Source: Alphaproteobacteria bacterium (GTDB taxonomy: Bacteria; Pseudomonadota; Alphaproteobacteria; UBA2136; UBA6156). Taken from it: 64,000 nucleotides of DNA. A model generated the notes under the pieces. That model had not been told where the DNA came from. It searched no databases and saw only the letters and a program-made list of their open reading frames with translations. This document shows positions 7,851 through 41,130 of the stretch, piece by piece. The stretch spans positions 23,546 to 87,545 of the forward strand of contig DATAJX010000006.1 of NCBI GenBank assembly GCA_036261915.1. The letters are read 5' to 3'. A program made the translations under genes and the position numbers. Position 1 is the first letter of the stretch. The number at the start of each line of letters is the position of its first letter.

Positions 7851-8702
7851 CTAAGCCTGCGTGCGGCTTGCCTGCGTGCTGGCCCCGGCGGCCAGCTCGG
7901 CACCGGTCAGGCTGCCGTTGCCGTCGCTGTCAAGCCGGGCAAACAGGTCGGCCAGGCTTTGCGAATGGTTGCCATAACTGTCCAGCGCCAGCTTCTGCAT
8001 CACCGTATCGGTCACGGTGCCCCACGCCACCACCTTGCCGGTGGCAGCCTCGGTCAACGTAAAGGTCTGGCTTTCGCTAGCCTCAACCCCCACCCCGTCG
8101 CGGCCATCAAGCAAAGCACCAAATTCATCGACACTCAGGCTGCCGCTGCGGTCGCCGTCGGCGCTGTCGGCCATCATCTGCCAGGCGGCGTTCAGGCCCT
8201 TGCCCAAGGCCTTCTGCTCCTGCGTCATGGGGCCGGTCTGCTGGCCGCCGTTGTTGGTGGGCGGGCCTTCATTACCACCCAGCTGCGCAATCGCGGCCTG
8301 AAGGTCCGGCATCAGCACCATCCCGGCAGGCGCACCGGTAATAACGGCGGCCCCACCCTCGCCTTTCTTGGCAGCCTCTACGGCGGCCCGGCTGGCATCC
8401 ATGGCTTCCTGCCACTGGTCAACCACATAGCCTTTCAGCTCATCCAGCGACACCTTTCCGTCGCCATCAACGTCAGCCTTGGCAAACGCGTCGGCGGGCA
8501 TTTTCGCCGCACCGGGCTTCACCGGCATCAGCAAACTCAAGGCCCCGGCGGCGGCGGCAAATTCCTGCTGGTTCAGCTGGCCGTCGCCGTCCTTGTCGGC
8601 GTTCTTGATGATCTTCTCAAGCGCCTCGGTCAGGTTCGAAGGCTTCTTTTCAGTCTGCTGGGTGGGCGGCATCAAGCCGGTGCCGCTAACGCTTCCTACC
8701 AT
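7851..8702 (-). CDS. EF-hand calcium-binding domain protein (paralog 1)
   Basis: Three canonical EF-hand loops: DKDGDGQLNQQEF, DVDGDGKVSLDEL and DSDGNGSLTGAEL. No signal peptide. Confidence 0.75.
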   Translation of the reverse strand: MVGSVSGTGLMPPTQQTEKKPSNLTEALEKIIKNADKDGDGQLNQQEFAAAAGALSLLMPVKPGAAKMPADAFAKADVDGDGKVSLDELKGYVVDQWQEAMDASRAAVEAAKKGEGGAAVITGAPAGMVLMPDLQAAIAQLGGNEGPPTNNGGQQTGPMTQEQKALGKGLNAAWQMMADSADGDRSGSLSVDEFGALLDGRDGVGVEASESQTFTLTEAATGKVVAWGTVTDTVMQKLALDSYGNHSQSLADLFARLDSDGNGSLTGAELAAGASTQASRTQA

Positions 8703-8717
8703 GGCTATACTCTCCTT

Positions 8718-9461
8718 TTAGCCAACCGTAATGCCGCTACCGGCCGTAGCGCTGGCCGTCACGTCGGTGGCATTGGCGGCCTGCAACGCACTGGCAAATT
8801 CGGCTCCGCTGATCGAACCATCGCCGTCGCTGTCCAGCTTGTTGAACAACTGGGCCAACCCGTCGGTGCCATGCTTGCGGTGGTTGCCGTAGCTGCTCAG
8901 CGCGTTACTCAGGCGTACCAGGCTGCCCAGGGGCGCATCGCCATTGCCGCTGATCATGCTGCTGGTGCCGTCGGCGGCCGTGGTGCCGCTCACGGTCACG
9001 CCGTCCATGTGGGCGCCGTCGGTGCCGTAGGTGATGTGAAAAACGCTGACACTCAGCGTACTGCCCGGCGGCAGGCCGTTACCGGCAATTTTCTTATAAA
9101 TGTCGGCGGCCAGTTCGCCATCGCTTTTCTGGTCATAGTGGCCCTGCCCGCCGCTGCTGGCGCTTACTTTGTCGGCAAACAGGTTACCGGCAAACTGCTT
9201 GAACTCGGCCAGCGAGATCTGGCCGTCGCCGTCCTTGTCGATGCTCTTGAACAGGTCGCTGGTGTCGGTGCCGGCGCTGCCGCCACTGGCCTGCCCCATC
9301 AGGTCGCCAAACTCACCGGCATTGATGCTGCCGTTGCCGTCGGTATCGACCTTGGCGAACAACCCCTGCAGAAGCGCGGCCAACCCGCCCGACTGCTTAT
9401 CGACCTGGCTGCCTTGGCCCATTTGGCCGGTTTGGCAGGCCCAGCCCACATTCATACTCAT
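8718..9461 (-). CDS. EF-hand calcium-binding domain protein (paralog 2)
   Basis: EF loops DTDGNGSINAGEF, DKDGDGQISLAEF and DSDGDGSISGAEF. It shares the C-terminal SYGNH...LFxxLDSDGxGS module with the downstream gene, and the 15-bp gap suggests an operon. Confidence 0.75.
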   Translation of the reverse strand: MSMNVGWACQTGQMGQGSQVDKQSGGLAALLQGLFAKVDTDGNGSINAGEFGDLMGQASGGSAGTDTSDLFKSIDKDGDGQISLAEFKQFAGNLFADKVSASSGGQGHYDQKSDGELAADIYKKIAGNGLPPGSTLSVSVFHITYGTDGAHMDGVTVSGTTAADGTSSMISGNGDAPLGSLVRLSNALSSYGNHRKHGTDGLAQLFNKLDSDGDGSISGAEFASALQAANATDVTASATAGSGITVG

Positions 9462-27322: not shown

Positions 27323-27444
27323 AACTCGTAACTTTCCTTTAAATCCTTAAAATCTGCCGGGCTTTTAGCCTAAACCGCCCCCCCGCGCAAGCCCTTTTGC
27401 AGGGGGGCCTTCCCCACCCCCTCGGCCCACGCTATTGTCGGCCC

Positions 27445-27870
27445 ATGAAAAACAATATCGCCCTCCTCACCGCCCCCCTGCTTTTGACCGCCTGCGCCGC
27501 CATGGTCGACACCCACGGCAGCATCATTCAGCAAGGCCAGATTGAAAAAATCACCGAAGGCGTCACCACGCAAGACCAGGTGCGCGAGCTGCTGGGTAGC
27601 CCGGCCACCACCGGCACCCTCAACGAAAACCGCTGGATCTACATCACCAGCACCGTGCGCGACAAACCCCTCGATCCCGGCATTCTCACCCACCGGCAGG
27701 TCGTGGTCATCGATTTCACCCCCTCGGGCACGGTAGCCGCCGTGACGCAAAAAAACGAGAGCGACAGCCGCACGGTCGAACCGCTGCCCAAGGTCACGCC
27801 CACCCACGGCCAGGGCCTGGGGGTCATCGACCAGATGCTCAAGAACATCGGCGTCGACAAGGATAAATAA
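27445..27870 (+). CDS. bamE: Outer membrane protein assembly factor BamE (SmpA/OmlA lipoprotein)
   Basis: Lipobox LLTAC, and the GMTRDQVRELLGSP-like motif (VTTQDQVRELLGSPA). Confidence 0.8.
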   Translation: MKNNIALLTAPLLLTACAAMVDTHGSIIQQGQIEKITEGVTTQDQVRELLGSPATTGTLNENRWIYITSTVRDKPLDPGILTHRQVVVIDFTPSGTVAAVTQKNESDSRTVEPLPKVTPTHGQGLGVIDQMLKNIGVDKDK

Positions 27871-27877
27871 GGCCTAA

Positions 27878-28468
27878 ATGACCCAGCGCGGCGCCCTGTT
27901 CGGCCTCGATGCCCGCATCGCGCTGGCCATTTTCGCCGTTCTGGCGGTGGTGGTGGGCTATCTGGCCTTCGGGCGCATCCAGGTGGCCCGGCAGGCCGCC
28001 CTGCTGGCCCAACTGCAGGATATCGAAAACGCCCTCGCCGCCTATCAAACCGACATGGGCACCTTCTTCCTGTTCACGCTGAATAAAGAGCCGGGCGACA
28101 ACGACAGCACGCTCGATATTACCGCCCTGTGGGATAAAAACATGGTCAAACCAGGCTTCCGGCGGCACTGGAACGGCCCCTACCTGCACCGCACCAGCCG
28201 CGAAATGCCCGGCTACGGCCGTTTAAGCGTGTTTTACGCCACCGGCGACCGCAAAGACTACTGCTCCACCACGTCCGACTGCTTTGTGTGGCTGTCGGTA
28301 TCCAGCACGCCGCAAAAGGCCTGGGTGCAAACCAACCATATCGTCGACGAAGGCAACGGCGCTGAAAACGAGATCGACGGCCAGCAGATCAGCCTCGGGC
28401 GCATCCAGTCCGAAGCCGCCACCGACCCCCGCCCGCTGTATTACCGCACGGTCGAACGCCCCCGCTAA
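27878..28468 (+). CDS. Pseudopilin-like protein A (GspG/EpsG-like body, atypical N-terminus)
   Basis: Conserved N-terminus QRGALFGLDARIALAIFAVLAVVVG, then AL..Y..D.G.F and W.GPYLH motifs reminiscent of T2SS major pseudopilins. Paralog of 34152..34745. Begins 7 bp after bamE. Confidence 0.55.
   Translation: MTQRGALFGLDARIALAIFAVLAVVVGYLAFGRIQVARQAALLAQLQDIENALAAYQTDMGTFFLFTLNKEPGDNDSTLDITALWDKNMVKPGFRRHWNGPYLHRTSREMPGYGRLSVFYATGDRKDYCSTTSDCFVWLSVSSTPQKAWVQTNHIVDEGNGAENEIDGQQISLGRIQSEAATDPRPLYYRTVERPR
27896..27944 (+). repeat. Direct repeat copy 1 (encodes LFGLDARIALAIFAV)
   Basis: ctgttcggcctcgatgcccgcatcgcgctggccattttcgccgtt, about 85-90% identical at the nucleotide level to 34185-34233. 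Confidence 0.7.
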
Positions 28469-28478
28469 GCCGCCATTT

Positions 28479-28506
28479 AAAAAGCCCCCGGCCGGGGGCT
28501 TTTTTA
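28479..28506. terminator. Bidirectional rho-independent terminator
   Basis: aaaagcccccggccgggggcttttttact, lying between two convergent genes. Confidence 0.75.
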
Positions 28507-31500
28507 CTGCGCGGCACGGCTGTACTTGGCGGGCTGGGCCGCAAAGGCGGCATATACATACGTGGCGCCACTGCCGTTATAGTCGCTGTTGGTGTTGCGT
28601 ATCTTGAACCCGTTTGAAACCACATCCAGGTCGGTGGCCGCATTACTGTTACTGGCCGATGTCAGGTTATAAAACACCTCGTTGCCGTCCGGGTTATACA
28701 GGTTGCGCGCGGTATCCAGCACAAACCAGTTGCCGGTGCTGTCGGTGCGCTTGATGATCACAAGCGCGGGTTTGAAACCCAGGTTCACATAAGCGCCGTC
28801 GGCACTACCGTTCCCGGTATAGGTTCCAAATTTGCTGAATCCCGGCACCTCGGCAAAGGCATAAACAACATAAGGCTGGCTGGCCAACACGCCGCCCCCG
28901 GCGGTCAGGCCCACATTGCTCGAGGTATGGCCCGAACCCCACATGGTCGAATACGTGGTCGCCGCCGCGGTGGTGTTCAGCGCCAGGTAGGCCGTGGTGT
29001 TGTTCGCCAGGTTCTGGTGCCACACATACCAGTGCGAAGCCGAACCGCTATACGTCCGGGCGATCACAAACGCCGGTACAACCCCCATGCCGTGCGCCGC
29101 GGTAAAAGCCCCCGATCCTGGCGCCGTACCGGTCAATATGTCCATGCCGGGCGTAACGCCCTTCTTAAACATGTGCGCCACATAAATGTTGCCGCTGGTG
29201 TTAAAGGCGCTGGCGCTGCCTACCGCAAAACCGTTGTTGTAAAAGGTTGCCAGCGATTGCGCATCGATGGTCTGCACCGCCGTGCCCGTGCTGTCCAGGT
29301 ACTTGGCGGGCCCGCGCGCACTGTCAAACCAGCCCCATGCGCCGGTGCTGGTATTATCCTTCAGCATCACCAGGTCGGGCTGGTAAGGGGTGTAGGTGGT
29401 CAGCGGCGTGTAGGTGATAACAATAAGCCCAGGGGCGCCCACACCCGCCGTGCTGCTGTTCGAACTACCGCCGCCGCCGCCGCCGTACAGGCCACCATTA
29501 CCCGCCGAATAACCGCTGCTGCCGCCCTGTTGCGAGCCGCCGCCGCCGCCCGAACCGTGCAGCGGGTCAAACTCCTGCCCGTTGCCACCGTTACCGCCCC
29601 TGCTGGCGCCGGCAGGATTGCCGCCGCCGCCGCCGCCGCCGCCCGATGACCCGAACAGCGAATAACCGTACCCGCCATGGGTATTGTTCACCGCCACGAT
29701 CCCACCGGTGCCGTTGACCAGCCCGCTGGCATTGGCCCCGCGCCCGCCAACGCCGCTGGTGGTGTTATTAGAGGGTCCCAATTGACCGGCTTCACCGCCG
29801 CCGCCGCCGCCGCCGCCCGGGCCGCGGTAGTTCACACCCGCGTTCGAGCCACCGGCCCCGCCATTGCCATAAGGTCCGGCCGCACCGCCGCCGCCGCCGC
29901 CCGCCTGGGTGCCGGTGGCGGGGCTCTGCCCGTTGCCACCGGCGCCGCCCGAATACTTGGTGGTACCGGTACCCGAGCCCGAAGCCCCGCCAGCCCCACC
30001 CGTGCCACCGCTGCCGCCGCTGCCGCCCTTGGCCCCCACGCTCGAAGCCGCCACGCTGGTGCCGTTGAACCACGTATCGCCGCCGGCGGTGCTGGCCGCA
30101 CCACCGCTCCCCACCTGGGTCTGCACGGTGGTGGTGGGCACCAGCGCCAGGTTCGATATCTTCGAGTACCCGCCGCCGCCGCCGCCGCCGTTGACCGAAG
30201 ACCCCGACGACGCCCCACCGCCGCCACCGATCACTTCAATGGTGTTGCTGGTGCTGTTCCAATCCAGCGGCACGCGCCACGAAGTCCCCCCGGTCAAAAA
30301 TATCTGCTTGGTCGTCGGCACGGTGGGCACATAGGTGATCACCACGATCCCCGGCGCCCCATTCCCCGGGTTTCCCTGGTTGGTGCTGGTATAACCGGCA
30401 CCGCCGCCGCCGCCGCCATACAGGCCGCCGTCACCACCACGGTAAATACTGCTTTCGCCGCCGCCGCCGCCGCCGCCCGCACCTGCACCACCCCACTCAA
30501 TGCCGTCGCCCCCCTTGCTCCCCAAACCGTGGGCACTGCTCACGCCGCCGCCGCCGCCTGCGCCAAAGGCCCCGGCGGTCGAATCCACACTGGCCGTCGC
30601 CGCACCGCCGCCGCCGCCGCCAAAGCGGTTAGCACCACCGGCACCGCCGGTGGTGCTCGTACCGTTACCTCCAACCGAACCGCCATTAGCTCCACCGCCA
30701 CCACCCGAACCTGCACTACCGGCCGAACTCATATCGCCACCATTGGCGCCATTACCGTTGGGCCCGGCGGCGCCACCGCCACCGGGGCCGCTCACATAGC
30801 CCGAGCCACCACCCGAATTCCCGCCGCTATACGCATAAGGCGCACCGGGGTTGGTGGTGCCGCCACCCGCACCGCCGCGCGCGCTCGAAGCCGCCCCGCC
30901 GGTCCCGCCGCTGCCGCTGGTGCCGCCGGTGCCGCCCTTGGCACCCACGCTCGCCACCGCCAGCGAAGCCCCGTTGAACCACGTATCGCCACCGGCACTC
31001 CCCGCCCCGCTGGTGGCCGGGGTGGCGGCCACACCGCCCATGCCCACATTGTAGCTGATGCTTGCCCCAATGGTCAGCGTCACACTGGTGGCCTTGGCAT
31101 AGCCGCCGCCGCCGCCGCTCCCGGCATAGGTGGTGCCGCCACCGGCCCCAAAACCGCCGCCGCCGCCAGCCCCGATCACTTCAATGGTGTTATCGCCGCT
31201 CCAGTCACTGGGCACGGTCCAGGTGGTGCCGCTGGTCAAAAACACCGTCTTGGTGGGCAACGGCCCAGGCAAGGTAACAACCTGGGTACCGCCCGTGCCG
31301 CGGTACAGCACCGGCTGGAAGTAAAGCGAAGGGCTCACCACCGCAGGTGTCGCCGTGTTGTAGGTGTTCAGCGCCGCAAACCCCGCCGGGGGGGTGGCAG
31401 CAAAAGCTCTCTGACCAAAGTTGAACGAGGCCGTTTGGGTGGAACCTTGGTTATTGCCTATGGCCGCCACCCAAGCCAGCCCCGCCGTAGCAGTGGCCGC

Positions 31501-32928
31501 CGGGCTGGTGCCGGTGGCAGGGTTCGAACTCCCCAGCCACGTCCCGTTCTTCGAGAAATAAAGCTTACCCGTGTCGGCGTCAAAGGCCACGCCAACCACA
31601 TCGTTAATGGCAATCGTCACACCATAGCTGGTAATGGCCGAACCGTTATTATACACTTGCCCCGCACTGTTTATCCCATAGCCATAAGTATTATTGTAGC
31701 CGGGGTAATAGCTCGCGGGCATGTTCTGCTGCTGGATACCCGCCGTCCCCACCAAACTGCCGGTCCATACAAACTCCCAGTACCATTTGCCACTCGTCAT
31801 CAACTGGTTGGCCTTCACAACGCTGTTGGTGGCAAACGGCACCGAAACGTCCATATTCGCCGCCGACAAGGTCGAGCCGGTCGGGTCCAGAAAATTGAAT
31901 GCAGGGTCATTCCCGCGCCCATTGTCGCCGTTGTCGGCCAACGTGGGGTGGTCTTCGGTAGGGTCATAGGTCACGCCGGTGGTCACGCTAAAGTTATTGG
32001 GCGTCCAGTTGTTGCCCTTACCGCTCACGTCCTTGCCCAGCGTGGTGGCGGTGTTGTTCAGGTAATTTTCAAAATCAAGATGGAATCCGTTGGTGCCATA
32101 AGCGCCGGTATAGGTTTTCGGCACCCACATGCCGTTGCTGTCAATCTCGGCAAAAGCGCTGGGGTCCAGGGCCAGGCCGTCCACAAAATTGATGTCGGCC
32201 ATCACGCCGTCAAAATACTGGGTGGAAGAACCCGCCGTGTTCAGGTAAGCGCCGATCCCGTTATAGCCGGACCGGTTGAAGTACGAAGTGGTGCTGTTCG
32301 CCACCGAGCCCGAACCGATCACCTGGCGCTGGCCGTTAACGTATATCCGCACGTTATCGGCGGTGGTGCCGTTGGCGGTGTCCCATACAAACACAATGTG
32401 GTACCAGGCCGTGGGGTCGCGGTACACGCCCGCGCTGGTGGCGGCATTGGCTGAGTTGGCATAAAAGATCAGCTGGTCGCTCGTATTGAAATCAACCTCG
32501 GTCGTCTGCCCCGACCCCACGATCTGGCTGAACAGGGTCTGCGTGGTTCCCATCTTCCCGCGCTTGACCCACATGCTCATGGTCCAGGTGGTCAGGTTCC
32601 CGTTGCCGGCGGGTGAGCGGCTCAGGTACGCCGAACTCGCGCTCCTGAACCGCAACGCCCCGCCGCTGCACTTGCCGTTGGTAACACCCGGAATGGTACT
32701 CGAAAGGAACGAACCCGCCGAGTTCTTCCACTCATAGCTATACTTCGTGGGCACCATCAGGCTCTTGCCGCTGGCATGGTTATTGGCGATCAGGCGGCAA
32801 CTGCCGAACTCATTGATGCCAAGCCCCTCGCCGTTCGGAATGGTGTAACTCACGTTGGTCTGCGCCATGGCATTGCCGCCCAGCAGCAACCCCAGCAGCA
32901 TCAGCAAAAACAACATCGCCCGGCGCAT
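28504..32928 (-). CDS. Giant secreted multidomain fibre-like protein (LamG-like + SPRY-like + 2x glycine-rich domain + duplicated C-terminal domain)
   Basis: 1474 aa with a signal peptide (AMA|QTN).
- aa ~100-240: LamG/ConA-like pattern (W.H..FVWD...VRIYVNG).
- aa ~380-500: SPRY-like pattern (KWYWEFVW...GDVVGVAFDADTGKLYFSKNG).
- aa 562-866 and 876-1173: two copies of a W.VP...IEVIG-GGGGG...APG(I/L)(V/I)VITY glycine-rich domain.
- C-terminal domain carrying a twice-repeated KP.LV.IK...STG.W..D.AR motif. Confidence 0.8.
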   Translation of the reverse strand: MRRAMLFLLMLLGLLLGGNAMAQTNVSYTIPNGEGLGINEFGSCRLIANNHASGKSLMVPTKYSYEWKNSAGSFLSSTIPGVTNGKCSGGALRFRSASSAYLSRSPAGNGNLTTWTMSMWVKRGKMGTTQTLFSQIVGSGQTTEVDFNTSDQLIFYANSANAATSAGVYRDPTAWYHIVFVWDTANGTTADNVRIYVNGQRQVIGSGSVANSTTSYFNRSGYNGIGAYLNTAGSSTQYFDGVMADINFVDGLALDPSAFAEIDSNGMWVPKTYTGAYGTNGFHLDFENYLNNTATTLGKDVSGKGNNWTPNNFSVTTGVTYDPTEDHPTLADNGDNGRGNDPAFNFLDPTGSTLSAANMDVSVPFATNSVVKANQLMTSGKWYWEFVWTGSLVGTAGIQQQNMPASYYPGYNNTYGYGINSAGQVYNNGSAITSYGVTIAINDVVGVAFDADTGKLYFSKNGTWLGSSNPATGTSPAATATAGLAWVAAIGNNQGSTQTASFNFGQRAFAATPPAGFAALNTYNTATPAVVSPSLYFQPVLYRGTGGTQVVTLPGPLPTKTVFLTSGTTWTVPSDWSGDNTIEVIGAGGGGGFGAGGGTTYAGSGGGGGYAKATSVTLTIGASISYNVGMGGVAATPATSGAGSAGGDTWFNGASLAVASVGAKGGTGGTSGSGGTGGAASSARGGAGGGTTNPGAPYAYSGGNSGGGSGYVSGPGGGGAAGPNGNGANGGDMSSAGSAGSGGGGGANGGSVGGNGTSTTGGAGGANRFGGGGGGAATASVDSTAGAFGAGGGGGVSSAHGLGSKGGDGIEWGGAGAGGGGGGGESSIYRGGDGGLYGGGGGGAGYTSTNQGNPGNGAPGIVVITYVPTVPTTKQIFLTGGTSWRVPLDWNSTSNTIEVIGGGGGASSGSSVNGGGGGGGYSKISNLALVPTTTVQTQVGSGGAASTAGGDTWFNGTSVAASSVGAKGGSGGSGGTGGAGGASGSGTGTTKYSGGAGGNGQSPATGTQAGGGGGGAAGPYGNGGAGGSNAGVNYRGPGGGGGGGGEAGQLGPSNNTTSGVGGRGANASGLVNGTGGIVAVNNTHGGYGYSLFGSSGGGGGGGGNPAGASRGGNGGNGQEFDPLHGSGGGGGSQQGGSSGYSAGNGGLYGGGGGGSSNSSTAGVGAPGLIVITYTPLTTYTPYQPDLVMLKDNTSTGAWGWFDSARGPAKYLDSTGTAVQTIDAQSLATFYNNGFAVGSASAFNTSGNIYVAHMFKKGVTPGMDILTGTAPGSGAFTAAHGMGVVPAFVIARTYSGSASHWYVWHQNLANNTTAYLALNTTAAATTYSTMWGSGHTSSNVGLTAGGGVLASQPYVVYAFAEVPGFSKFGTYTGNGSADGAYVNLGFKPALVIIKRTDSTGNWFVLDTARNLYNPDGNEVFYNLTSASNSNAATDLDVVSNGFKIRNTNSDYNGSGATYVYAAFAAQPAKYSRAAQ

Positions 32929-32932
32929 GGGC

Positions 32933-33952
32933 TCAGCGCCCTGCTTGCTTGGCCCGCAGTTCGTCCACTTCGCGGCGCAGGTCGTCGATTTGTTTTTGTT
33001 GGATCTTCACAGCCTCGATCAACGGCGCGATCAGCTGGTCGCTGTCCACCACCATGGTGGTGCTGCCGCCGCCGTGCACAGCCTCGGGCATCACCTTCTG
33101 TACATCCTGTGCGATCACCCCGTACGAGGGTCGGCCGTCCTTCTTCCAGGTAAAGTGCACGCCGTTCAGGCTTTTCACCAATCCCATGGCGTCGGCCACC
33201 GGCACAATATTGTCTTTCAATCGGCGGTCCGAACTGTGCAAATAGGCAACCGCCGTCATATTGCCGCTGGCGCTCACGTCACCGGCCACCTCAAGCTTGC
33301 TGGCCGGCGAGGTTACACCCAAACCCACATTCCCGGCGCTCGTAATCCCCAGGCGCGCACCCTGCCACGCACCGGCAATATAATTGCCCACCATATACAT
33401 CCCGCTGCTGTCATAACCGGTGGCCCACAACGGCGTGGTGTTGCTGGTAAAACGTATGTAGTTCCAGCTACCGGTGCCCGACCGCGACAATGTCATGGTA
33501 TTATCAAGGCCCGACAGCACATAAAGCGGCACCGTCGTGGTGGCGGCAGCCCCAATCCCCACATTACCGCTCGAATAAAACCCGGTGGCCGAAACCACAC
33601 CAGTGGCACTCACCCCCGGTCCCACAAAGCCCAACGTAGGGTGAATGTAAGCAGCCCCCGCCGTACCCGCCAATGTAAAGCTCACAGTGCCCCTGTCGGC
33701 CACCACCATGCCCAGGTTGGCGCCGCTGGAAACGTTGGTGGTGCTGATGCGGTCACCCGCGCCCCCACCGTTGGTGAACACAATGCCGTTCACCGCCAGG
33801 TTGGTGGTCGATACGTACAAAAAGTGCCCATACGTCCCGCTCACCACCCCGGCCACGCTGGTACTTACCAGCGGCGCATTGTTCATCTGCGCCATCACGC
33901 CGCCCGGCAGCAGTAGGGCGCAAACAAGCAAAAGCAGGCGTAATGTTTTCAT
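32933..33952 (-). CDS. Secreted phage-tail-fibre-like protein with a C-terminal S74 intramolecular chaperone autoprocessing domain
   Basis: Signal peptide (VMA|QMNN). Tail-fibre repeats (GNVGIG...TT, GNVGLGVTSPASKLEVAGDV). The C-terminus YLHSSDRRLKDNIVPV...GLVKSLNGVHFTWK...LIAPLIEAVKIQQKQIDDLRREVDELR matches the Ser-Lys dyad chaperone-of-endosialidase domain. Lies 4 nt downstream-adjacent to the giant gene. Confidence 0.8.
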   Translation of the reverse strand: MKTLRLLLLVCALLLPGGVMAQMNNAPLVSTSVAGVVSGTYGHFLYVSTTNLAVNGIVFTNGGGAGDRISTTNVSSGANLGMVVADRGTVSFTLAGTAGAAYIHPTLGFVGPGVSATGVVSATGFYSSGNVGIGAAATTTVPLYVLSGLDNTMTLSRSGTGSWNYIRFTSNTTPLWATGYDSSGMYMVGNYIAGAWQGARLGITSAGNVGLGVTSPASKLEVAGDVSASGNMTAVAYLHSSDRRLKDNIVPVADAMGLVKSLNGVHFTWKKDGRPSYGVIAQDVQKVMPEAVHGGGSTTMVVDSDQLIAPLIEAVKIQQKQIDDLRREVDELRAKQAGR

Positions 33953-34151
33953 CTTCTTGAACCCACATTAACGGCTCATCTTTTCCGCGCAACGCCCGAG
34001 TAAGCAAAACGCCGACATTTCCGCCCAAAAAATGAGCCAAACCTCATTAAAAAAACAACACTTTACAACAGTAAAACAACAGCCACGCATCACCTCCGCA
34101 TCATTTGCGCACGCCCCTTGCGCCCCCGCCCCTGCCTGCTAGCATGTTGGC

Positions 34152-34745
34152 ATGAAGCATATTTTACAGTCACAACAAGGCGCCATGTTCGGGCTCGACG
34201 CCCGTATCGCGCTGGCGATTTTCGCCGTGATTTCCGTGGTGGCGGGCACCGCCATCGCCATCAGCATGGATAGCACCCGCGCCAAGGCCCTGGCGCAGGA
34301 AATGTCCGACACCGGCAAGGCCATCGAATCCATCAGCTACGACATGCGCGCCGATCTTTACCCGTCCCTCATCCAACCCTCGCCCAAAAACGCCTACACG
34401 GCGCTGTTCGACGTCAGCGTCATCAAAGACGAAAACAACTTGCGCGGCAAATGGTTAGGCCCCTACGTTCATGCAACAAGTACAAGCTCCCGCTACGGCG
34501 AAATGATGATCGAGGCCCGCAAGGCCTCCCATGCCGACGCCTGCATGGAAGGCGAGCCCTGCTTCCTCTGGCTCACCTACGCCAACGTCAAACGGGCGAT
34601 TGCGCTCGAGGTCAACAGCATCATCGACGGCGACAAAGAAACCGACCCGGCCAAAACCGGCCGCATCCAGTGGGTCGAGAACGCCGACGGCACAACGCTC
34701 AGCCTGCAGGCCGCCAAAACGCTCACTTATACCGGGAACAACTAG
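34152..34745 (+). CDS. Pseudopilin-like protein B (paralog of 27878..28468)
   Basis: QQGAMFGLDARIALAIFAVISVVAG N-terminus. Contains AIESISYDMRADLYP and KWLGPYVHATS, and shares the C.FLWL motif with A. Its stop codon overlaps the nusB stop. Confidence 0.55.
   Translation: MKHILQSQQGAMFGLDARIALAIFAVISVVAGTAIAISMDSTRAKALAQEMSDTGKAIESISYDMRADLYPSLIQPSPKNAYTALFDVSVIKDENNLRGKWLGPYVHATSTSSRYGEMMIEARKASHADACMEGEPCFLWLTYANVKRAIALEVNSIIDGDKETDPAKTGRIQWVENADGTTLSLQAAKTLTYTGNN
34185..34233 (+). repeat. Direct repeat copy 2 (encodes MFGLDARIALAIFAV)
   Basis: atgttcgggctcgacgcccgtatcgcgctggcgattttcgccgtg. Confidence 0.7.
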
Positions 34746-35236
34746 GCTTTCACAAAAAATTCGCCCCGCACCGCGCGGGCGATCTTATCCAGCGTGGCGT
34801 TCACAAACGCCACTTCTTCGGGGCTGGCCACAAAGCCTTTGGCAATGTTCACAAACTCGTTGATGACCACGGGCGGCGTCACATCGGCACGGGCAAACAG
34901 CTCGGCGGTGGCAGCCCACAGCAGGGCGTAGTGCACCGCATCCAGCCTGTCCATCGGCCATTCTTCCAGCAGGTTGGCACCAATCAGGGCGGCGTGGCGC
35001 TCGGCGCCGCGGGCGGCTTCGGCGGTAATGGCGTCAAACATCTTCTTGTCGGCCTTGCGACGCTTCAGGCGCGCACCGGCAAATTCGGCGGCCACATCGG
35101 CCACGTCCTGCCCACGCGCCTTGGCCTGGAACAACGCCTGCACCGCGCAAATGCGCGCCTCGGTGCGGCTGTCCTTCACCAACGGAGAATTTTCGAGGGG
35201 GAACGCGTCTTCCCCGGCTTCCCAGGCCTTAACCAT
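34742..35236 (-). CDS. nusB: Transcription antitermination factor NusB
   Basis: ARICAVQALFQ...helical NusB fold motifs. 164 aa. Confidence 0.9.
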   Translation of the reverse strand: MVKAWEAGEDAFPLENSPLVKDSRTEARICAVQALFQAKARGQDVADVAAEFAGARLKRRKADKKMFDAITAEAARGAERHAALIGANLLEEWPMDRLDAVHYALLWAATAELFARADVTPPVVINEFVNIAKGFVASPEEVAFVNATLDKIARAVRGEFFVKA

Positions 35237-39609: not shown

Positions 39610-41130
39610 CTAAGCGGCCGATACAACGAGGCTTTCCCAGGCCGCCTTCAACACCTTGCGCACCAGCGCCGCGTCTTCCGAATGGTCGAACAGCCCGCTG
39701 TCCACCGGCCCGGTCTGGGCGGCGGCAAAACTGCCCAGCGGCACCAGGTGCACCTGCGGGGGCTTCACGCTGCCTACCCGGAAAACCTTGCGGTAGCTCT
39801 CAAACCGCAGTTCCATTTCGCCGTGCAGGCGGCGGGCCAGGCTCTCCAGCACCGGCTGCGGCACCTCGCCCATCGGGCGGCTGATCTCCAACACCCACAC
39901 CGGCTGACGCTCGGCCACGCGGTGGCCCAACAGGGCATCGCGCACAAACACACCGTGGTTGCCCAGCGCCATATTGATGTTGGCCAGCGCTTCCACCACC
40001 GCGTCTTCGCGTATCCCCTCGCCCAGCCCGTCAAGGCGCATGGCGGGGCCGCGGCAACTCACGTGCATGGGGTCGGTCTGCAATACCTTGATCAACTGGC
40101 CGCTGGCCACGCCCAGCAAACCGCTGGCGGTGGTCAGCACCGGCATGTACTCCTGCCCCGGCTCCACCTGTCCGGCGTGCAGGCGGCGGAAGTTCCGCGT
40201 CAGCTTGCCGTCGCTGGTCACGTCACCGGCGGGGATGAACTCATAAAACGCCTGCCCGTCGCCGATCATCTGCAACCGCTGGCGGATGTTAATGTCGTAC
40301 TGGCACGCCACAAAACCGGTGGGCTGCCACAAATATTGCAGCCACTTTACCCGCTCCAGCCCGGCCAGCAAATAGCCGATCTCGGTCCGTTGCAACGCCA
40401 CCTCGTAGTGGTTGAACAGTATCGCCTGCAGGTTCGGCACCAGCTTGGCCAGCGGGGTGAATTTGCCTTCCTGCTGGCTCACGTAAAGCCCAAAGTCGAT
40501 CAGCGTCTTGGGCGTGGTCACCAGCGCGCTCACCTCGTTCCCCACCTGCCGCAGTTGGTCAAGCATCGCAGCAAACCAGGCAAAGCGGCTGCCCCCGGCG
40601 GCGGCCAGCGTGTCGGCGCGCGGCAATACCCAGCGCCTGCGGAACCAGTTGCGCTGCGCATCCAGCGCGGTGTTCAAGCCCACCATCGGCAGGCCGGGGC
40701 CACGGTGACCGGCCTCGTTATCGCCCAGGTAAAAGAAGGCGCCGTCCAACTGCAACCCCTGCGCCTGCATCAGGCTTTTCATGTGGGCTTCGGCAGCCAG
40801 CAGGTCATCGCCCAGCGGGTTGCCCCACGGCAGCGGCAGGTTTTTCCACGGCACGGTTTTTTCGATCCGCGTCTTGGTGATCAGCCCCGGGCTTTGCAGC
40901 ACCAGCGGGTAAGCCTGCCCCGGCGGCTGCAGTATCTTCGACAACCCGTCAAGCCAGCCCTTGCCGCTTTGTACAGGCACGGCGCGGGTAAAACTCTGGT
41001 ACAGCAAATTGAAGTCGCGATAGCTGTTCAGCTTCTGCAGCCCCATGTGGGCATACAACGAACTGCGGCCATTGGCCTTCACAATGCGGCGCAGCGCGTT
41101 TTCCTGCTGTTCGGCAAAAGTCATTGCCAT
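39610..41130 (-). CDS. GH3 (auxin-responsive promoter) family adenylating enzyme
   Basis: Size (506 aa) and motifs (SSGTT-like region, YYEFIP...) match the bacterial GH3 family. Confidence 0.6.
   Translation of the reverse strand: MAMTFAEQQENALRRIVKANGRSSLYAHMGLQKLNSYRDFNLLYQSFTRAVPVQSGKGWLDGLSKILQPPGQAYPLVLQSPGLITKTRIEKTVPWKNLPLPWGNPLGDDLLAAEAHMKSLMQAQGLQLDGAFFYLGDNEAGHRGPGLPMVGLNTALDAQRNWFRRRWVLPRADTLAAAGGSRFAWFAAMLDQLRQVGNEVSALVTTPKTLIDFGLYVSQQEGKFTPLAKLVPNLQAILFNHYEVALQRTEIGYLLAGLERVKWLQYLWQPTGFVACQYDINIRQRLQMIGDGQAFYEFIPAGDVTSDGKLTRNFRRLHAGQVEPGQEYMPVLTTASGLLGVASGQLIKVLQTDPMHVSCRGPAMRLDGLGEGIREDAVVEALANINMALGNHGVFVRDALLGHRVAERQPVWVLEISRPMGEVPQPVLESLARRLHGEMELRFESYRKVFRVGSVKPPQVHLVPLGSFAAAQTGPVDSGLFDHSEDAALVRKVLKAAWESLVVSAA

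Follow-up and report, generated by a model that had tools for sequence, protein, structure and literature searches.

A near-invariant variant prepilin signal marks a probable type IV pilin family of uncultured alphaproteobacteria-like lineages

INTRODUCTION

The usual way to detect type IV filaments is by the canonical prepilin motif, G|FTLIE (the bar marks the cut), and all bacterial prepilins are cut after Gly. Canonical type IV pilins have a short, hydrophilic, basic leader ending in this Gly, a hydrophobic N-terminal helix of ~50 residues with one early acidic residue, and a beta-sheet head. Their systems include a cognate A24 peptidase, a GspE/PilB-type ATPase, a GspF/PilC-type platform and operon-encoded minor pilins, one of which lacks the acidic residue. 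Here we describe two genes, A and B, in a 64,000-nucleotide (nt) stretch (the window) of contig DATAJX010000006.1, from an alphaproteobacterial metagenome-assembled genome (MAG). The proteins and the machinery linked to them resemble the canonical systems in all of these respects. A and B are old paralogs that probably serve as type IV pilin-class subunits in a type IV filament (TFF) machine specific to the lineage.

The differences from canonical pilins concern the N-terminal signal. In place of F-T-L-I-E, the mature N-terminus would read A-M-F-G-L-D-A-R. Asp stands as the acidic residue, at +6 (+5 with a cut after Ala), and an invariant Arg follows two residues past it, inside the hydrophobic tract. 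The position of the Gly is occupied by Ala in ~16% of members. The members also lack a match to N_methyl (PF07963) or TIGR02532, so all are annotated as hypothetical.

Pilins of the type IVb class (TcpA/CofA/BfpA) have 180-200 amino acids (aa), leaders of 15-30 aa, a non-Phe residue at +1 and a T4b-type fold. Identity to the type IVb pilins CofA of enterotoxigenic Escherichia coli (ETEC) CFA/III, TcpA of Vibrio cholerae and PilS of Salmonella Typhi is only 9-16%, the leader here is shorter (median 10 aa) with a different signal word, the ATPase carries an MshEN-type N-domain, and no T4b-specific components were recognised. Compared with GspG pseudopilins from the type II secretion system (T2SS), the proteins score far under the curated cut-offs, are ~50 residues longer, have many paralogs with variable heads and lack Glu5.

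The peptidase, short and without an N-terminal methyltransferase domain, is like those of Tad/Flp and archaeal pili (TadV/CpaA, PibD/FlaK). Caulobacter PilA has Ala after the cleavage-site Gly (G|ATAIEY). As in archaea, Ala is tolerated at -1, and large pilin paralog families occur in some archaea as they do here. Unlike Flp pilins of 50-80 aa, however, the pilins described here have ~185 aa and no E-Y motif; their ATPase is of the GspE/PilB type (matching GspE, PilB and MshEN) rather than the TadA/CpaF type, and one platform protein takes the place of the split TadB and TadC. The system thus falls outside Tad/Flp, to which only the short, TadV-like peptidase bears a resemblance.

RESULTS

Genes A and B both lie on the plus strand of the window, and each opens with a leader followed by a conserved N-terminal word:

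27878..28468, plus strand: pilin A (196 aa), ortholog of the A type and the first gene past bamE
27878..27892, plus strand: leader of A, M-T-Q-R-G, a direct sequence reading; removal by an A24 peptidase is proposed
27893..27940, plus strand: conserved N-terminal word of A, A-L-F-G-L-D-A-R-I-A-L-A-I-F-A-V, with the invariant F, G, D and R columns
34152..34745, plus strand: pilin B (197 aa), ortholog of the B type, named in the first-pass annotation
34152..34181, plus strand: leader of B, M-K-H-I-L-Q-S-Q-Q-G, from the sequence, its start placed by family evidence
34182..34229, plus strand: conserved N-terminal word of B, A-M-F-G-L-D-A-R-I-A-L-A-I-F-A-V, from the sequence and the family alignment

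The first-pass annotation, made from the letters alone, had described A and B as two diverged paralogs sharing an N-terminal word. This description holds: the open reading frames (ORFs) and their translations are as quoted, the proteins are 33% identical over 178 residues by BLASTP (E=1e-26), and GA(L/M)FGLDARIALAIFAV, W.GPY(L/V)H and C.F(V/L)WL are found in both, a likeness far beyond chance. Codon-position GC follows the pattern of real genes (GC1/2/3 of ~0.6/0.45/0.82 against a window GC of 62%; GC3 is 0.83 in A and 0.81 in B). The order bamE - A-type - B-type - nusB-nrdR-glyA is kept in ~24 genomes whose housekeeping proteins are only 40-90% identical. An A ortholog always comes directly after bamE, followed by one or more B orthologs, which makes A and B old paralogs with an orthogroup each.

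A word-indexed search with B returned 146 relatives, and an exhaustive phmmer run with A as the query, covering 1.84 billion cluster representatives, returned 588 at E<=1e-3, nearly all of them ~190-210 aa long, metagenomic and unannotated. The word FG[LIVM][DE][ASG]R is present in 245 of 252 retrieved relatives, where the three residues before it are GAM (172), AAM (39) or GAL (19). In an alignment of 110 sequences, with an overall identity of ~25-30%, columns F13, G14, D16, R18, W101, G103, P104 and Y105 are invariant, and A11, L15, A17, A20, I23, G32, A57, D64, C131, C137, D159 and G170 are at least 90% conserved. The earlier suggestion that the N-terminal word could define a new signal is supported. 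The statement that A and B have neither G|FTLIE nor Glu5 is also literally true, yet the leader ends in a canonical [QK][KR]G and an Asp stands at +6 (or +5). The leader is followed, as in type IV pilins, by a tract of ~21 mainly hydrophobic residues at the start of a long helix, AMFGLDARIALAIFAVISVVAGTAIAI; it has two charges, this invariant Asp and the invariant Arg that follows, where the canonical tract has one.

No family member is intermediate toward G|FTLIE. Neither A nor B matched Pfam N_methyl PF07963 or TIGR02532 at E<=1, and none of the 110 members did so at E<=0.01. Pfam T2SSG (PF08334) was reached by 18 of the 110 at E<0.01 (best 4e-7). A itself scored E=0.0057 (17.1 bits, below the cut-off of 21) and, against TIGR01710 GspG, 18.4 bits against a cut-off of 88.85; B matched neither model. 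Direct assignment of A and B by Pfam or NCBIfam was rejected, the GspG signals being only sub-threshold. We found no relevant paper on the motif, and no description of the signal, in the searchable literature. The A/B signal is a lineage-specific variant of the class III signal, undescribed in that literature, and this unusual, near-invariant Q-R-G-A-M-F-G-L-D-A-R hid a large pilin family from standard annotation.

Confident AlphaFold2 models built on family alignments place a helix at residues 13-65 of B, followed by four strands (pLDDT 91.7, pTM 0.79), and a helix at 10-60 of A, followed by a sheet (pLDDT 87.0). A Foldseek search against the PDB was negative, and a sequence-profile search of PDB sequences gave nothing significant (TcpA at E=0.25, over the helix part only). 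The fold table gives the following paired figures for reference pilins:

CofA: 8.2 / 7.9
C. difficile PilA1: 7.9 / 8.8
TcpA: 7.1 / 6.7
PulG: 6.4 / 6.1
EpsG: 5.8 / 5.9
PilS: 5.6 / 5.7

These models support a predicted pilin fold, an N-terminal helix on an antiparallel beta-sheet, for both proteins, whereas a specifically GspG identity is not supported. Of the GspG/EpsG-type pseudopilin features first attributed to A and B, the fold stands, and the GspG match is sub-threshold for A and lacking for B.

The residues ahead of FGLDAR could be read in another way. Translation would start at the Met of MFGLDAR, no leader would exist, and the conserved upstream "GA" codons would be a ribosome-binding site. 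One gene caller (Logan; P0001-P0003) does begin B at Met12, and AAGG lies 4 nt upstream of the Met12 ATG in B. The codons of 134 distinct genomic copies argue against this reading. Gly, present in 133 of the 134, is encoded by GGT (72), GGC (38), GGG (12) and GGA (11), and the Ala by all four synonymous forms. At the "Met" position, 27 copies have a non-ATG codon, 19 of them CTN (Leu). The two residues ahead of the Gly are kept as [Q/K/N][K/R], and every gene has an in-frame upstream start; A itself has CTG (Leu) at the "Met" position and a clean ATG 5 codons upstream. The synonymous codon spread and the non-ATG codons indicate that selection acts on the leader as protein. A Shine-Dalgarno role for the conserved "GA" was rejected on codon usage, and translation from Met12 is effectively refuted, its probability being close to nil. 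Median leader length is 10 aa (range 4-84), net charge is +2.7, and 89% of the leaders have K/R within three residues before the Gly; this is the class III layout.

There are two candidate positions for the cut. Cleavage after Gly would give Ala+1 and Asp+6, and we lean toward it: the leader end QKG/QRG is canonical; a second minor-pilin class has an invariant Gly, with a variable residue (A, A, A, A, N, G) and the onset of divergence directly behind it; and Gly is replaced by Ala or Ser in ~17% of major pilins (by Ala in ~16% of the metagenomic protein set), the latitude that one would expect of position -1. A cut after the invariant Ala, which would give Met/Leu+1 and Asp+5 in the canonical register, is somewhat less probable but a serious contender. 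Ala11 is more conserved than Gly10, and an ungapped extension of a weak hidden Markov model (HMM) alignment to TcpA sets Asp16 on Glu5 and Met12 on Met1. Either way, A and B would be cleaved by a prepilin peptidase and polymerise into a filament.

A "double leader" occurs in some UBA12223 and marine-metagenome paralogs (L025 at 6602 and 7375, L058 at 6585, L059 at 2285, L068 at 575, L079 at 6308, P0061 and P0228). In these, a first motif copy, M-x-KKGAMFGLE(G/S)RVLRK, lies ~43 residues upstream of the true GAMFGLDARIAL and is degenerate past FGLE. It may be a conserved long-leader subclass or a recombination scar.

The signal is held constant across large paralog sets. Among the loci retrieved, UBA12223 has at least 32 copies and MarineProteo1_Bin2 at least 31. 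In these two genomes the N-terminal 27 residues of the paralogs are 98-99% identical as protein and only 81% identical as DNA, codons at conserved degenerate positions are ~50% identical, and the heads have a mean identity of 29%. Gene conversion as the cause of the identical N-termini was rejected, given 81% DNA identity and synonymous variants at about half of the codons. This pattern reflects strong purifying selection on a shared processing and assembly interface together with free divergence of the exposed domain. It favours, without proving, a many-specificity surface fibre over a T2SS piston.

The machinery that would serve these pilins is found in relatives. In 6 related loci a third family member lies directly upstream of a GspE/PilB-type ATPase gene, and the full operon is kept in 7 loci from at least 6 MAGs. 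It opens with cytochrome c, a pilin, the ATPase (T2SSE 4e-67, MshEN) and the platform (T2SSF); next come three proteins without annotation, a pilin-like protein of 252 aa and one or two pilins of 302 aa with QTGAVFGMDARV; Peptidase_A24 and a DnaJ-domain protein close it. The peptidase (Peptidase_A24, 3e-12) has ~205 aa and no methyltransferase domain, and the platform is a single 368-aa protein with two T2SSF stretches. One of the minor pilins in the operon carries the same signal and one lacks the Asp and Arg. The ATPases form a tight clade of 83 proteins at 66-94% identity, with the next matches at ~30%. Against NCBIfam, the ATPase scored 241/630 bits for GspE and 235/676 for PilB, and the platform 100/424 for GspF; the other operon components had no NCBIfam match. 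The TadA-related TIGR03819 matched the ATPase at only E=7.5e-6. The machine is a member of the type IV filament superfamily and falls into no curated sub-type.

Taken literally, the first-pass GspG/EpsG reading would make A and B the major pseudopilins of a degenerate T2SS, in a short periplasmic piston that would push folded proteins through a secretin encoded elsewhere; we consider this unlikely. Within the operon, Pfam and NCBIfam recognised no secretin, GspC or GspL (only a faint GspM, E=0.14). Related loci totalling 1.1 Mb gave nothing in a crude scan for secretin motifs, which is a weak negative only.

The window's own MAG appears to encode the machine as well. An ATPase of the clade (P0317, HEX2859498.1) lies ~145 accession numbers before the window proteins HEX2859643-669 in the same MAG submission and comes from the same sequencing run as protein A (SRR12773038). 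Its locus, L084 (GC 61.9%), holds the whole operon with T2SSE, T2SSF and Peptidase_A24, the same-organism link depending on binning; four of its proteins, of 469, 166, 292 and 244 aa, have no annotation. The 300-aa pilin there begins MGLFTRLSQRG-AMFGMDARIALIV…, the 262-aa pilin-like protein reads …CNQRG-ALSPFMFGLIMG…, and the peptidase (P0370), annotated by NCBI as "prepilin peptidase", has both catalytic-Asp motifs (LALDLTTYTLPD and GGGDFKLL). The proposed search for T2SS or type IV pilus ATPase and prepilin peptidase genes thus located both in the same MAG submission, and the 300-aa pilin provides the similar N-terminus that was to be sought elsewhere. Processing by a different peptidase had also been suggested; the enzyme is indeed a dedicated one in the cognate operon, but it belongs to the usual family, Peptidase_A24. 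A and B are probably served by this dedicated short A24 peptidase and by a divergent GspE/GspF-type machine encoded elsewhere in the genome.

The operon also bears on whether A and B are processed at all. They had been suggested to be unprocessed, inner-membrane-anchored pilin-fold proteins, whose helix would act as a signal anchor only, with no polymerisation. The lack of a canonical G|FTLIE and of N_methyl or TIGR02532 matches, the position of A and B amid housekeeping genes (bamE, nusB) far from the machinery in this genome, and a charged Asp/Arg pair in the helix that is atypical of pilins are all compatible with this suggestion. However, a signal anchor needs no near-invariant 16-residue word that is 98-99% identical over more than 30 paralogs with diverged DNA. 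Moreover, the word is common to a minor pilin inside the ATPase/platform/peptidase operon, a family member is the first operon gene in the 6 loci, and the leader has the class III layout. An unprocessed anchor is therefore very improbable, and we retain the reading of A and B as pilin-class subunits of a filament.

Two further genes are conserved at these loci. The last gene of the operon, directly after the prepilin peptidase gene, encodes a protein with a Cys/His-rich N-terminal segment and a C-terminal DnaJ (J) domain (L084 12163-12723; L029 18572-19117; also L031, L045, L061 and L063); to our knowledge, J-domain proteins are not standard in type IV filament systems. A gene for a membrane-anchored cytochrome c lies immediately upstream of the third pilin gene in more than 20 loci (L027-L070; for example, L029 9221-9796 and L081 8872-9405), with or without the operon; in L081 the order is cytc - orf165 - pilin - topA.

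A scan of one genome per species across 185,579 species with the pattern [GA]A[ML]FGLDAR gave 142 confirmed loci, every one of them in a MAG that carries the label Alphaproteobacteria or Proteobacteria (MarineProteo1_Bin2 included), apart from a few in evidently mislabelled MAGs. The filament machine is confined to uncultured alphaproteobacteria-like lineages, of which we know of no cultured member. Micavibrio was considered as a cultured home and rejected: it is reported to have canonical prepilin signals (PMC3189940) and is missing from the pilin and ATPase match lists. The bamE-pilin-pilin-nusB synteny and the pilin family also occur in L005/L048 (QFOU01), L010/L043 (VAFM01), L006, L007, L017 and L020, records labelled "Pseudomonas fluorescens", "Blastochloris viridis", "Pseudomonadaceae", "Pseudomonadales" and "Magnetococcales"; these labels are probably wrong.

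The immediate surroundings of A and B in the window are as follows:

27397..27870, plus strand: bamE, its stop 7 nt before the start of A (Pfam BamE 2.4e-14; synteny in ~24 loci)
28469..34151, no strand: 5.7 kb insertion that splits the A-B pair, outside the pilin system and absent from related loci
28483..28505, no strand: GC-rich hairpin (AGCCCCCGG/CCGGGGGCT) with an A-run and a T-run on its flanks, from inspection of the sequence
34742..35236, minus strand: nusB, convergent with B with a 4 nt overlap (ORF list and tblastn synteny)

The window is ordinary chromosome, which includes dsbD, a prfB-type release factor gene, PBP1a, amiC, rne, accBC, fabH-rpmF-bamE, nusB-nrdR-glyA, aroA, ntrYX, hflX, topA and pyrH-tsf-rpsB. 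No pilus or secretion genes were found among its ~40 larger ORFs, which are housekeeping or unrelated, and no other class III-like N-termini occur within it. The third pilin, which in relatives sits upstream of topA, is absent from the window.

In L001-L024 the A-type and B-type genes are ~600 bp apart. The junction of the insertion that separates them here is also present in an independent assembly (L083). The insertion carries two genes on the minus strand, one for a 1474-aa secreted, Gly-rich SPRY + DUF7483 protein (28504-32928) and one for a secreted protein of 339 aa that has a tail-fibre chaperone domain, Peptidase_S74 (32933-33952); the Gly-rich repeats lift the local GC to 0.72. In the 24 syntenic relatives tblastn detected no homolog of either gene, and both were rejected as parts of the pilin system on that ground. 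The insert might be a phage-derived surface fibre. The hairpin at 28483..28505 was missed by a simple terminator scan, and only inspection marks it as terminator-like; it resembles a bidirectional terminator set between the end of A and that of the inserted giant gene.

Elsewhere in the window, two adjacent genes on the minus strand (7851-8702 and 8718-9461; 283 and 247 aa) encode proteins with several EF-hand motifs each (Pfam EF-hand_1 2e-22 and 2e-20), and adjacent multi-EF-hand genes are an uncommon arrangement for bacteria. A 506-aa protein (39610-41130, minus strand) has a central domain of the GH3 family (Pfam GH3_M 2.6e-7), the family of plant auxin-amido synthetases. Its gene has the same position in relatives, with 81% identity in L001, for example.

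DISCUSSION

A model for the system can be drawn from these observations. A and B each start with a leader that is short and basic and ends in [Q/K]-[K/R]-Gly. They would be inserted into the inner membrane via the hydrophobic N-terminal helix, as the predicted fold suggests, and the operon's short A24 aspartic prepilin peptidase, with which the signal co-occurs, would take off the leader at the cytoplasmic face. The cut would most probably fall after Gly (Ala+1, Asp+6) and possibly one residue later (Met/Leu+1, Asp+5). We expect no N-methylation, given a peptidase without a methyltransferase domain. The GspE/PilB-type ATPase and the GspF/PilC-type platform would then extract the subunits and polymerise them via their invariant N-terminal helices, and the two minor pilins, one with the same signal and one without the Asp/Arg pair, would join the filament. 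The invariant Asp, together with the Arg two residues on, may take the charge-neutralising and registering role of the canonical Glu5. Canonical tip pilins lack Glu5 just as one minor pilin here lacks Asp and Arg, and this parallel supports the Asp as a likely functional counterpart of Glu5. Given its variable heads and, in some genomes, an expansion past 30 paralogs, the product would be a surface-exposed adhesive fibre rather than a periplasmic secretion piston; this is the least secure point of the model.

More tentatively, the system may be an unrecognised type IV filament sub-type of deep-branching alphaproteobacteria-like lineages that include MarineProteo1. Such a sub-type would have its own ATPase clade and a co-evolved short peptidase, an Asp/Arg pair replacing the contact between Glu5 and the N-terminal amine, and no N-methylation. 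One helix would display dozens of interchangeable heads (more than 30 pilins per genome) as a multi-specificity adhesion or recognition fibre. We regard this extended proposal as possible rather than probable.

A whole clade can alter the prepilin motif, hold the new one near-invariant and escape annotation. All members examined bear the label "hypothetical", whereas the ATPase and peptidase of the same genome are annotated, which explains the "orphan" pilus machines without apparent pilins in these MAGs. The motif [QK][KR]G-A-[ML]-F-G-L-D-A-R is directly usable to find the missing subunits. The family also offers a natural experiment on the function of Glu5, with an Asp/Arg pair in its place, possibly shifted by one position, and another on recognition by prepilin peptidases, with Ala after the Gly, Ala tolerated for the Gly, and an enzyme without a methyltransferase domain. 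MarineProteo1 and its relatives enter into the debate about mitochondrial ancestry, and their lifestyle now has a concrete clue in a conserved machine, for the surface or for secretion, whose variable subunits number up to ~30.
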